Positions 3,406 to 48,690 of a stretch of 64,000 bases of DNA are shown one piece after another. The notes beneath the pieces are model-generated. The model was not told where the DNA came from. It was given only the letters and a program-made list of their open reading frames with translations, and did not search any database. How positions within the stretch are numbered: the stretch's first letter is position 1; each line of letters starts with the position of its first letter. This DNA is from Salinispira sp. (GTDB lineage: Bacteria; Spirochaetota; Spirochaetia; DSM-27196; Salinispiraceae), in the NCBI GenBank assembly GCA_965602015.1, contig OZ271918.1, positions 3,072,001-3,136,000 of the forward strand. The letters run 5' to 3'. The translations under genes were made by a program, and so were the position numbers.

Positions 3406-4488
3406 ATGGCACGCAAGTACAATTTTTACGCCGGACCTTCGACTCTGCCCGAGGAAGTGCTCAAGGAACTTGAGGCAGATTTCGTTGATTACAAGGGATT
3501 GGGTCTCTCCCTCGTTGAAACCAGCCACAGAAGTCCGGAGTACGATGAAGTGCATCAGTCGGTCATTCAGGGTGTCAAATCACTCCTCGGTTTGAGCGAT
3601 GATTATGAAGTGGTTATGATGGGAGGAGGAGCCACCCTTCAGTTTTCGGCTGTCCCCATGAATCTTCTGGGTGATAAAAAGCGGGCTGATTATGTAATCA
3701 GCGGTACCTGGGCAAAAAAAGCCCTGGCTGACGCCAAGGTATACGGCGAACCAGTGGTTCTTTGGGACGGGAAGGACGGTAATTATACCAGTCTACCGGC
3801 AGCGGATTCTGTCCGCCCCGGGAAAGACAGTGCCTATCTGCATATTACCAGCAACGAGACAATTAACGGGGTTCAATGGAAGGATTTCCCCGATGTGGAT
3901 ATTCCGCTGGTGGCAGACATGTCATCGGACATTCTCTCGCGCCCCCTACCTGTCGATCGCTTCGGTTTGATCTATGCAGGAGCTCAAAAAAACCTGGCCC
4001 CCGCCGGGGTTACCCTGGTCATTATCCGCAAGGATCTGCTTGATCGGGCAGGGGACAATGTGGGCGCCTACCTGAAATACAAGACCCACGCTGAGAAGGA
4101 CAGCCTCTACAACACGCCGCCGGTGTTCTCGATTTGGGCCATGAGCCGGGTACTTAAATGGATTGAGCGGAACGGCGGTCTGGCGGGCATAGAGAAAATC
4201 AATGCGGAAAAAGCCGATATGCTCTACCGGGCCATCGATGAGGCCGATGGTTTTTACAACTGCCCCGTTGATGCCTCGTACCGTTCAAGCATGAACGTGG
4301 TTTTCACGTTGGCCGACGAAGAGCTGCAGGGCGAGTTTCTCAAGGGCGCAGGTAACCTGGGAATGCTCGGCCTCAAAGGCCACCGATCGGTGGGCGGGTG
4401 CCGCGCTTCGATATACAACGCCATGCCGATTAGCGGAGTACAGGCCCTTGCGGAATACATGAAGGATTTCGCCGCGAAAAAGGGCTAA
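3406..4488 (+). CDS. serC: Phosphoserine aminotransferase
   Basis: YNFYAGPSTLP, SHRS, DMSSD, AGAQKNLAPAG, YNTPPVF and LKGHRSVGGCRASIYNA. RBS AGGAG. Confidence 0.97.
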   Translation: MARKYNFYAGPSTLPEEVLKELEADFVDYKGLGLSLVETSHRSPEYDEVHQSVIQGVKSLLGLSDDYEVVMMGGGATLQFSAVPMNLLGDKKRADYVISGTWAKKALADAKVYGEPVVLWDGKDGNYTSLPAADSVRPGKDSAYLHITSNETINGVQWKDFPDVDIPLVADMSSDILSRPLPVDRFGLIYAGAQKNLAPAGVTLVIIRKDLLDRAGDNVGAYLKYKTHAEKDSLYNTPPVFSIWAMSRVLKWIERNGGLAGIEKINAEKADMLYRAIDEADGFYNCPVDASYRSSMNVVFTLADEELQGEFLKGAGNLGMLGLKGHRSVGGCRASIYNAMPISGVQALAEYMKDFAAKKG

Positions 4489-4547: not shown

Positions 4548-4576
4548 TTGACGACAGGTTCGGGCGGTATTAGAAT
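4548..4576 (+). promoter_or_regulatory. Sigma70-type promoter of the stand-alone RNA
   Basis: TTGACG (4548-4553), 17 bp, TAGAAT (4571-4576). Confidence 0.7.
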
Positions 4577-4582
4577 TTAACT

Positions 4583-4837
4583 GTTGATGAAGATTTCATC
4601 AGGATTCCAGGTTCCCGGGAGAACCCGTAAGTTCCCCGAGGAAGGGTCCAGAACATACTGCAGGAGGGCTTATGGCAACTCCACCTAAAGCAGACGGGCC
4701 TGACAGTCCTTGATTCTCAATCGGGACTGCCGATGCCCCGTGTCAGACAAATCCATCAATGTCTGTGACATTGATTTAAGAAGCCCGGGAACATGATCCC
4801 GAGGTTAAGGCCGGCAGTTAGTGCCGGCCCTTTTTTT
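4583..4837 (+). ncRNA. Structured non-coding RNA candidate of unassigned class; 6S RNA should be tested first
   Basis: Has its own promoter and terminator. GTTCCCGGG (4611-4619) pairs with CCCGGGAAC (4784-4792), with several internal hairpins. No long sense ORF is present and the next gene is convergent. Confidence 0.65.
4809..4837 (+). terminator. Rho-independent terminator
   Basis: GGCCGGCA-gttag-TGCCGGCC followed by C and T7. Confidence 0.85.
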
Positions 4838-4970: not shown

Positions 4971-6032
4971 TTATTCCGCAAGCAGTGGGCCGAGAAAATC
5001 CAAGTAGGTTTTCCAGGCATTGTCGCCGTAATTTCCGGCCTGGACCCAGGCAGCCGGTATGTCCCTGCTTCTGAGGAAATCCCGAACGAGGGTATTTCTT
5101 GCAAGCATCTGACGCCGGTTTAGTTTGAGAAGTTGGGTGGAGGGCAGCTGATCTTCTTCAAAAGGATCGGCTCCTGCTACGATAAACGCGATATCAGGGG
5201 TGGCTCGCCCCCACTGCTTTTCGCTTCGAGACACGAGCTCGCTCAGGCCGACGGCCAACCGCGAGTTGTACGTACCCTCTTCGCCGGCATCGACTGCAAT
5301 ATCGATATCGCTGGATATCCAGGCCGGATCCGAGTCATAGCCCGGAACCTGCCGCCGCTCGTCAAGCGGCCAACCTCGGGCCATATGGATGCTTAAGGCG
5401 ATGACGCCCTGGTCTCCCCCCTGATTCAGGCGCTTGACCAGATCTGCGGTTCCGTCACCCTTGTGGGCGTCAATATCAATAATCCATGCCGACGGCTTTT
5501 CCCCGCCTCCCGCTAGGCGCTCCCTGGCGGCCAGAGTGTCGCTGTAAAAGCAAAAACCCGAACCGAAGTCCCAGTGAGCATGGTGAAATCCTCCACCAAA
5601 ATACCAGGCTTCACCAGTTTCGAGAGCGAGCTCAGCGGCGCGGATAACCCCGCCGCCTCGCCGACGGACAATCTCGAATAGCTCGGATAATGGCCTGCTG
5701 GCTGCCGAGGGTGCATAGCGGTAATAGTCGCCGTTGCGGTCAATCAGCTCAAAGGTGCGAAGGATTTCGGTCTCCAGCTCGGCTCCGCCGGCGAGAAGCC
5801 GCCGTATGTAATTGGGGCAATGAACCGCGGCCAGCTCCGCTTCGCTGGGGGCCTTGGCCAAATCGGAGTGATACCAGGACGGCATGGATTCTCCGGAAGG
5901 CGGAATTGCGCTTTCCCCGGACATATGCAAGAGCTCCTTCATGGTTTTGAGCGCATTATTAAATGATATGGGGATATCTATACCGTAATCCGCCACATCC
6001 AGGCGGTCTGATGGATCGTAAATAATTTCCAT
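4971..6032 (-). CDS. Histone deacetylase-family (Zn-dependent) deacetylase
   Basis: GGGFHHAH..GSGFC, IDIDAHKGDGT, AGADPFEED and GNYG. Start placed at ATG 6032, just after the pfkA stop. Confidence 0.88.
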   Translation of the reverse strand: MEIIYDPSDRLDVADYGIDIPISFNNALKTMKELLHMSGESAIPPSGESMPSWYHSDLAKAPSEAELAAVHCPNYIRRLLAGGAELETEILRTFELIDRNGDYYRYAPSAASRPLSELFEIVRRRGGGVIRAAELALETGEAWYFGGGFHHAHWDFGSGFCFYSDTLAARERLAGGGEKPSAWIIDIDAHKGDGTADLVKRLNQGGDQGVIALSIHMARGWPLDERRQVPGYDSDPAWISSDIDIAVDAGEEGTYNSRLAVGLSELVSRSEKQWGRATPDIAFIVAGADPFEEDQLPSTQLLKLNRRQMLARNTLVRDFLRSRDIPAAWVQAGNYGDNAWKTYLDFLGPLLAE

Positions 6033-6039
6033 GGGATTC

Positions 6040-7383
6040 CTATGTGCTTTTTTCCCCCGCTTCAGAAGACCACTGAACCGGCATACCGGTGGCGTCAATG
6101 AGATCGCGCCACAGACTGCTTTCCGGATCTACGTGATTCCGGGTTCCCGTGGCAATTCTCATGGGAACGTGTACGAAGTGGTTGTTCAGCAGGCTTACCA
6201 GTATCTTCGTTTTTCCCGCCATGGCCGCATGCACCGCATTTGTTCCCAGACGCGAACAGTACAAGCTGTCCGTCGGTATGGCCACCGATGACCGGATGAT
6301 ATAGCTGGGATCTATGTATTTTATGTTCACCGGGAAATTAATACTTGAGAAATGATCCGCCAATCGTTTTTTGAGGTACACGCCGATATCCCCCAGAAGC
6401 TTGTTTCCCGAGGCATCGGTTCCCTCCTGAGCATCCAACAGCCGCTGTCCGGCACCTTCGGCCACGACGATAACCGCATGGTTTCGCCGTTCAAGGCGCT
6501 TCTTCAAATGCTCGAAGAGCCCTCCGGGACCTTCGAGGGAAAACGGAACCTCGGGAATAAGTACATAATTGACATCATGACTCGCTATCGCAGTGTGGGC
6601 GGCAATAAAACCGCTCTCCCGGCCCATGAGTTTTACCAGGCCGATACCGTTTTGCGCTGAATGGGCTTCCTGATGGGCGGCGAACACCGATTCAGTAGCC
6701 CGGACCACCGCGGTCTCGAACCCAAAGCTCTTTTCGATAAAGCTCAAATCGTTGTCTATGGTCTTGGGAATACCGACCACGGCAATTTTGAGCCCGCGTT
6801 TCTCGATTTCCTCCGCCAGGGCAAGGGCCCCTTTTTGCGTCCCGTCGCCCCCGATGGTAAAAAGCATATTGATATTCAACCTTTCCAGGGCGTCGACCAG
6901 ATCTTCGGTGCGGTCCCCGCCCCCGCGCGAGCTGCCCAGCATTGAGCCGCCTATGCGATGAATATCATCCACCACATTGGGGTTTAATTCGATGATCGGC
7001 TCGCTGACAGTTCCCAAAAGACCGTTGTACCCGAACCGAATGCCGGTTATGCGCTGCACTCCGTAGCGGTACCAGAGGGTCCGAACCACCGAACGGATTA
7101 CATCGTTGAGCCCGGGACACAGGCCTCCGCAGGTCATGATTCCCGCCCGCACATGCGCCGGCTGGAAATAGATCATCTCCCGGGGACCCGCCTTCTGAAG
7201 CGTTCCGTAATCCTCGTAGTTTCTGCTTTCCCCGTCTTTCTCAACTTTAACATGATAGAGGATTTCCTCGTCATCGCTCACATAGTTTGCTATAGTGTCA
7301 CCATAGATCTTCGAAAAGACGATGGGCGACTGAATTTTCGTTTTTCCGAGATCGGGAACGGAAAAATCGTAGGTTTCTGCCAT
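6040..7383 (-). CDS. pfkA: 6-phosphofructokinase (long form, probably ATP-dependent)
   Basis: TCGGLCPGLNDVIR, GGDGT, PKTIDND, MGRESGFIA and YIDPSYIIRS. Confidence 0.93.
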   Translation of the reverse strand: MAETYDFSVPDLGKTKIQSPIVFSKIYGDTIANYVSDDEEILYHVKVEKDGESRNYEDYGTLQKAGPREMIYFQPAHVRAGIMTCGGLCPGLNDVIRSVVRTLWYRYGVQRITGIRFGYNGLLGTVSEPIIELNPNVVDDIHRIGGSMLGSSRGGGDRTEDLVDALERLNINMLFTIGGDGTQKGALALAEEIEKRGLKIAVVGIPKTIDNDLSFIEKSFGFETAVVRATESVFAAHQEAHSAQNGIGLVKLMGRESGFIAAHTAIASHDVNYVLIPEVPFSLEGPGGLFEHLKKRLERRNHAVIVVAEGAGQRLLDAQEGTDASGNKLLGDIGVYLKKRLADHFSSINFPVNIKYIDPSYIIRSSVAIPTDSLYCSRLGTNAVHAAMAGKTKILVSLLNNHFVHVPMRIATGTRNHVDPESSLWRDLIDATGMPVQWSSEAGEKST

Positions 7384-48551: not shown

Positions 48552-48690
48552 AAGTGCCCCGAAAACAGCTGATTTAAACCACCTAATCAGTTGGTGGACA
48601 ATGGGTTGCCTGAGTACCATTGCCAAAACCCGGCTTGTCCCTCGCACACAATGATTTATAGCAGAAAAATCAGCTGTTTTCGGGGCAGTT
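48552..48690. mobile_element. MITE-like element, copy 2 (139 bp, 24-bp TIRs with 1 mismatch)
   Basis: AAGTGCCCCGAAAACAGCTGATTT (48552-48575) and AAATCAGCTGTTTTCGGGGCAGTT (48667-48690). The interior aligns by eye with copy 1. Confidence 0.75.

Follow-up and report, generated by a model that had tools for sequence, protein, structure and literature searches.

A widespread, stand-alone spirochaete RNA with a conserved reading frame and a constant spacing between Pro-Pro and a hairpin: a candidate ribosome-pause sensor

The window analysed here, a 64,000-nt stretch of contig OZ271918.1 from Salinispira sp., carries at positions 4548-4837 a single-copy, stand-alone structured transcription unit. 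The element is real, widespread and uncatalogued. From promoter to terminator its parts are variable 5′ hairpins, a Shine-Dalgarno sequence (SD), a start codon, 1-12 codons, Pro-Pro, 10 nt and hairpin P2, followed by a linker, P3, P4, an A-rich gap and the terminator (Table 1). We are highly confident that this is a stand-alone translated unit. Whether it also works in trans as an orphan sensor of ribosome pausing is a proposal whose chances we consider evenly balanced, and the mechanism set out below, which draws on modelled folds, is plausible. The original prediction of an undescribed non-coding RNA class holds insofar as the unit is real, stand-alone, structured and uncatalogued. The term ‘non-coding’ has to be dropped, because the SD, the start codon and the in-frame Pro-Pro, part of an SD-AUG-Pro-Pro frame (4662-4713) overlooked in that prediction, are what is most conserved.

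Table 1. Parts of the RNA in the window and the genes flanking it.
Feature	Position	Strand	Remarks
Sigma-70-type promoter	4548..4576	+	−35 at 4548-4553, 17-nt spacer, −10 at 4571-4576; same position in 106/119 homologs
Predicted transcript	4583..4837	+	~255 nt; ends inferred, the 5′ one by the −10 box and the 3′ one by the T-run
Two 5′ hairpins	4585..4649	+	4585-4601 and 4602-4649; lineage-specific, number and length vary among homologs
Shine-Dalgarno of the small ORF	4662..4667	+	From sequence; also in homologs
13-codon ORF	4672..4713	+	Pro-Pro is codons 4-5; stop codon within hairpin P2
Pro-Pro codons	4681..4686	+	No letters of the 5′ half are better conserved; 10 nt ahead of the P2 arm
Hairpin P2	4696..4738	+	Longer interrupted stem in the window copy; short GCCGG/CCGGC stem in 89/116 homologs
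Hairpin P3	4755..4775	+	Equivalent hairpin covaries in family f10
Hairpin P4	4782..4806	+	Local fold of the segment originally paired with the 5′ end; homologs also have a hairpin here
Intrinsic terminator	4809..4837	+	Stem-loop 4809-4829, conserved in stem and loop sequence, then T-run
Aminotransferase class V gene (serC-like)	3406..4488	+	Flank, outside the element
Deacetylase-family gene	4971..6098	-	Flank, outside the element; convergent

The TTGACG-17-TAGAAT promoter, the 5′ hairpin, the hairpin later named P3, the terminator with its T-run and the convergent deacetylase-family neighbour are all present as first described. Taken alone, the promoter match in the window is near chance (1 found vs 0.9 in shuffles); across the homologs, a promoter scoring at least 9/12 is in place at 106 loci, compared with 26/119 on the opposite strand and 6/114 further upstream. 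The window RNA folds with a z-score of −3.84, and 0/200 shuffles were equally stable. The long-range stem proposed to close the molecule (4602-4619 with 4784-4799) was not confirmed: the complementarity exists in the letters, but its expected number of pairs in the ensemble is 0.06, against 17 and 8.6 for the local hairpins that its two halves favour. The suggested CCCGT/ACGGG helix is likewise missing from the predicted folds. Homologs fold as strings of local hairpins, with at least six long-range end-to-end pairs in only 1/39 and a median of 4.4/63 long-range pairs over 95 loci. RNAalifold picked 12 pairs of the long stem in three same-genus rows, with 6 broken in one row and 4 showing a double-sided change, and the stem may be a genus-level alternative fold.

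Homologs had been called for by the original prediction, and 120 loci were collected, one per genome in 120 genomes from 23 families of the class, with lengths of 145-327 nt including the terminator. A DNA search returned homologs in two genera, and a terminator pattern matched 40/99 genomes of the order (control 0); 39 of those 40 supplied the first set of loci. Named records carrying the terminator belong to Salinispira, Alkalispirochaeta, Spirochaeta and Spirochaetaceae by title, apart from one contig of a Bacteroidetes-titled MAG (L018). That contig matches the G002 locus (serC and the RNA) almost exactly and is likely a mis-binned spirochaete contig. A model built from 16 of the 39 first loci (R1) matched, at E ≤0.05 and with weak terminator-only matches counted in, 66/99 genomes of the order and 63/150 of the class. 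Seventy-five further matches were inspected and 60 kept, the other 15 having been discarded by eye, ahead of counting, for a missing module or promoter.

A second model, R2, was restricted to the 5′ module. It matched 29/121 genomes of family f12, including 15/15 of genus g45 but only 1/18 of g27, 1/28 of g33 and 1/14 of g31. Inspection of 33 R2 loci yielded 21 new members, with the terminator found in 21/21, ~95-115 nt on, and the listed promoter in 17/21; since both lie outside the R2 model, their presence is an independent test of membership. Three second matches within one genome were inspected and none was a member. The element was found in 0/8 genomes of family f15, whose genomes measure 1-1.8 Mb. 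R2 also matched 15/150 phylum genomes, among which no credible member was found outside the class: matches there reached E 0.01 or worse only, and the terminator was absent from all 6 loci inspected. Class coverage, taken from these two partial models, is a lower bound.

The terminator pattern hit 26 genomes in a 401-genome sample of the phylum, mainly through 3-mismatch matches near control level. A metagenome pattern gave 70 matches, 60 of them distinct; 27 have the terminator and family-like peptides, and the remainder are mostly GC-rich chance matches. The exact terminator pattern had 0 matches in metagenomes. A single viral match is a long ORF and hence no family member. One locus, L109 (G054), lacks promoter, SD and start codon and keeps everything from the Pro codons to the terminator, reflecting either a deletion or an assembly error.

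The start codon with the best SD is in frame with Pro-Pro in 38/39 first loci and in 56/57 later loci, the latter gathered with a model that contains the Pro codons and scored after 3 of 60 loci without an anchor were set aside. A second script rescored the first set at 33/38, with two anchors mis-picked and three starts assigned to an out-of-frame neighbour. The distance from start to Pro-Pro in in-frame loci is 3, 6, 9, 12, 15, 18, 24, 33 or 36 nt. The same SD-start-Pro-Pro pattern taken genome-wide has no such bias, its frames splitting 22/20/11. Entropy is highest at the third codon position (1.62 vs 1.04 and 0.96), and synonymous to non-synonymous changes number 36/48 in frame, compared with 22/78 and 16/84 in the other frames. 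Synonymous variation extends to the first Pro codon itself (CCA 65, CCG 47, CCC 4; n=116). The preferred CCA makes up 105/1650 first codons of Pro-Pro pairs in the window genome; in E. coli, CCA has been reported to strengthen weak pauses (PMC8129111). Exceptions are G009, G097 and G170, which lack one proline, and G567, which has a single one. An anti-SD role for the Pro codons was rejected: over 96 loci, the natural codon pairs form 2.9 base pairs with the SD and their synonymous counterparts 3.3. On these comparative grounds, the reading frame and the proline are under selection.

The distance from Pro-Pro to P2 is invariant, at exactly 10 nt in 39/39 loci, and position +16, counted from the first base of the Pro codons, is a G in 39/39 and then 109/116 loci. 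The peptide, by contrast, is free to vary: it is 9-47 aa long, its tails are unrelated, and the stop codon falls within P2 in 49/115 loci. With the spacing fixed and the length free, what is conserved appears to be the act of translating Pro-Pro beside a hairpin, not a protein. The residue following Pro-Pro is mainly V, E, K, Y or D, all of which are weak-to-medium pausers, and an acidic residue adjoins Pro-Pro in 76/116 loci.

If the peptide were the product, the RNA would be an mRNA with a structured 3′ UTR, coding for a small protein whose N terminus bears an acidic/Pro-Pro motif. This reading would account for the frame and codon signal, for the acidic neighbours of Pro-Pro, and for the first six residues, which are near-constant across the genera of f12. 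We consider it unlikely, because the lengths and tails of the peptides diverge, the fixed distance runs to an RNA hairpin instead of to the stop, and so many stops lie inside P2.

Compensatory changes back P2 and the terminator. In their joint alignment, 99.9% of cells are paired and double changes occur in 9/13 pairs, in an alignment that was fitted to the structure it scores and whose related rows are not independent; the family f10 alignment has 98.1% of cells paired and double changes in 9/23 pairs. The span from P2 to the terminator is 73-136 nt (10th-90th percentile). In nascent-RNA folds (n=115, with a hairpin mis-located by script in 7), pairing between the 3′ arm of P2 and the 5′ arm of the terminator forms in 77 with a ribosome footprint on Pro-Pro, in 9 when free and in 16 with the footprint at the stop codon. 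This arm pairing has no covariation support, with own arms scoring −11.2 and swapped arms −11.0, and the terminator re-forms in 102/115 full-length folds. The logic is the opposite at 14 f10 loci, where a ribosome on the stop codon is what favours the pairing, and in the window RNA the arms pair in both states. The modelled switch logic is thus not uniform across the family.

The gene downstream was classified at 99 loci, using Pfam on 77 representatives and BLAST clusters for the rest: 58 are convergent, 30 co-directional and 11 undetermined. Convergent genes include phosphofructokinase (24), DNA polymerase III delta (6), cation efflux (5) and deacetylase (4), among others, and gene families are unrelated between lineages. 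With the majority convergent and the others unrelated, there is no fixed regulated gene, and the RNA leads none. As first argued from the convergent gene in the window, it is not a riboswitch leader.

These observations bear on a classical cis attenuator, in which a Pro-Pro pause would favour an antiterminator and read-through into the following gene or antisense to it. In its favour are an SD and a short ORF with control codons, then P2 and a terminator with matching arms in a 1:2 / 2:3 / 3:4 layout, the 2:3 pairing formed under a stall footprint in most of the nascent folds, and a co-directional gene at nearly a third of the loci. Against it stand the convergent or unrelated neighbours, the lack of covariation between the P2 and terminator arms and the differing logic in f10. 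No consistent, signal-related co-directional gene follows the RNA over the 99 loci, and membership of the attenuator class fails for want of a regulated gene. We regard this explanation as distinctly unlikely.

Predicted pairing with the genome’s own efp was at control level (−9.0 vs −8.8 kcal/mol for foreign efp, 30 genomes), as was pairing with the proB start region (−10.2 vs −10.4, 26 genomes). The window genome encodes efp, as do 29/30 member genomes, and also rho, RNase Y and csrA. Hfq was not found in it, nor were RNase J and Rae1, which would suit a stall-and-cleave or 5′-block model. The EF-P tip loop reads VNPGKG in 28/30 genomes (L090, L228-L256). A tRNA-editing domain was matched at E 1e-10 in 28/30 genomes and in neither the window genome (G000) nor G002, whose ProRS may lack the editing insert.

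Two families of repeats were observed in the same genome. Short MITE-like elements with ~20-nt terminal inverted repeats lie at 2641-2781 and 48556-48686 of the window; genome-wide there are ~30 BLAST places and more than 50 end matches, and L002 has a related element just after the RNA locus. A second, palindromic family of ~115 nt occupies 28 places, nearly all in two clusters with ~1-kb spacing (G000:C1, ~1.716-1.742 Mb and 3.440-3.456 Mb), which could mark cassette arrays.

Comparison with Rfam, which the original prediction had recommended, revealed no known family: none of 41 loci scanned (the window RNA and 40 homologs) gave a gathering-score match at the RNA, and the sole match in the window copy is a 16-bit chance match to the terminator. 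The RNA is not SRP, tmRNA or RNase P, as first argued, each having its own model match elsewhere in the window genome. No description of it was found in the literature searched, subscription papers apart. In the available portion of a 26-genome ncRNA survey, Leptospira is the only spirochaete named; the main text of a 50-genome survey mentions no spirochaetes, and its supplement, beyond the text covered, may bear on novelty.

The suggestion of a divergent 6S RNA that binds the RNA polymerase holoenzyme is not borne out. It gains some support from the vacancy it would fill: 6S models (RF00013, RF01685) matched nothing in the window genome; RF00013 matched 0/99 genomes of the order; and no 6S candidate was present behind rplT or zapA or before rny in the window genome. 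In a rod-fold scan of intergenic regions covering 3.62 of 3.87 Mb, the best 14 of 60 rods were repeats, tRNA pairs and weak folds. The RNA is also single copy, of similar size (~200 nt) and widespread in a class, as are known 6S RNAs including Borrelia Bb6S (PMC6041397, PMC10319736). It differs in having no open-promoter-like rod, and in having a reading frame and its own terminator. A long rod with paired ends and a central bubble was not found, with partial support in three same-genus rows only. Homologs show no closed rod, their lengths range widely, the reading frame is conserved and the element was found in none of the small f15 genomes. We consider a 6S identity very improbable.

Other characterised RNAs share features with it. 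rnTrpL of Sinorhizobium and E. coli, which acts in trans (PMC6614838, PMC12612679), shares a short terminated transcript, an SD, a tiny ORF of control codons and alternative hairpins; rnTrpL, however, serves as the trpE(G) leader and responds to Trp, whereas the present RNA has no fixed gene, keeps Pro-Pro at a set position before a hairpin and has no target found. The mgtL leader of Salmonella and E. coli mgtA has, as here, a very short ORF with prolines and acidic residues; in mgtL this ORF pauses or destabilises the ribosome (PMC12856214). It controls a downstream Mg transporter via Rho; the present RNA is followed by no transporter and ends at an intrinsic terminator, and the stretches left unpaired in it seem too short to load Rho. 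Dual-function sRNAs (SgrS, SR1, AzuCR, Spot 42, VcdRP; PMC12612679, a review whose main text does not mention spirochaetes) likewise are independent transcripts in which a promoter and terminator of their own flank a small ORF, the rest of the RNA being structured. The peptides of these sRNAs are of set length and function, whereas the present family keeps only Pro-Pro and its spacing, and Hfq is absent from the window genome. By analogy, its mode of action would be closest to that of rnTrpL and other sRNAs derived from attenuators, here freed from any operon.

CsrB/RsmY-type sponges share with it a string of hairpins, a conserved terminator and a host with csrA. This likeness invites a further reading as a decoy for CsrA or another SD- or hairpin-binding protein, the ORF merely gating access. 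About half of the RNAs carry two SD-like purine motifs, the second falling in the first 14 nt (49/94, vs 4/65 in the next 14 nt; absent from the window copy), and two near-identical GC stems lie ~96 nt apart. Yet GGA, counted over the whole RNAs, is not enriched (217 vs 198 in shuffles, 39 RNAs, SD included), the repeated GGA loops of CsrB-type RNAs were not seen, and the ORF is conserved, so we give the decoy a small probability. The extra SD-like motif would also suit a ribosome trap. Ribosomes recruited through a strong promoter and SD would then halt at Pro-Pro, up against the hairpin, and the RNA would act as a buffer of ribosomes, EF-P or Pro-tRNA, its hairpins purely protective and without a separate 3′ effector. 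That only the 5′ module and the terminator keep their sequence, and that no pairing with efp or proB was found, agrees with a trap. The retention of P3, P4 and the P2-to-terminator span argues against it, as does a motif context resembling a weak pauser, and on balance it is improbable.

The reading we prefer is an RNA gated by a ribosome pause and acting in trans. It is chosen over attenuation because the arm switch has no covariation, the terminator dominates, f10 follows the opposite logic and the window RNA pairs its arms in both states. A counter-indication is that P3 and P4 keep their shape and little of their sequence, which makes them unlike a seed-bearing sRNA and weighs against action in trans. 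The control-level pairing with efp and proB, the absence of Hfq, the weak-to-medium pausers that follow Pro-Pro and the mixed switch logic speak against the preferred reading too. When the second proline is in the P site, ribosome geometry would place P2 at the mRNA entrance, and a translating ribosome would meet the hairpin at that point. Slow Pro-Pro bond formation, limited by EF-P or Pro-tRNA, could combine with the hairpin into a tunable pause. Pro-Pro is known to be slow and EF-P dependent, with codon choice tuning weak pauses (PMC8129111), and known sensors include leaders that combine acidic residues with proline, mgtL being one (PMC12856214). The paused ribosome would open the first bases of P2 and release its 3′ arm, which could then pair, as the RNA is being made, with the 5′ arm of the terminator. 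Either this pairing or ribosome cover against RNase Y may change the amount of terminated RNA bearing the P3-P4-terminator end; a preprint on Rae1, an enzyme not found in the window genome, reports that RNA cleavage can be determined by stalling at Pro-Pro (bioRxiv 10.1101/2025.06.04.657793). In this way the pause would govern how the RNA folds or how much of it there is, action in trans being the predicted outcome.

We tentatively propose, as a possibility somewhat short of probable, that the RNA founds a class of orphan attenuators, translated up to Pro-Pro and a hairpin roadblock, that convert the state of ribosomes or of EF-P into a signal carried by RNA (or store ribosomes), regulate no gene of their own and are kept in most sampled free-standing lineages. 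Apart from Borrelia and Leptospira, spirochaetes have few known regulatory RNAs, and the interest of this one is framed by hosts without Hfq (the window genome) or a detectable 6S RNA (99 genomes of the order). That several lineages with small genomes have lost it or carry a diverged form (f15, and genera g27, g33 and g31 of f12, where few members were found) offers a handle on its role. The 10-nt ruler between Pro-Pro and hairpin, present in at least 23 families, makes it a natural device combining a nascent-peptide pause with an mRNA roadblock. If the RNA indeed reports on EF-P or Pro-tRNA without a downstream gene, the logic of attenuation would extend to stand-alone RNAs.
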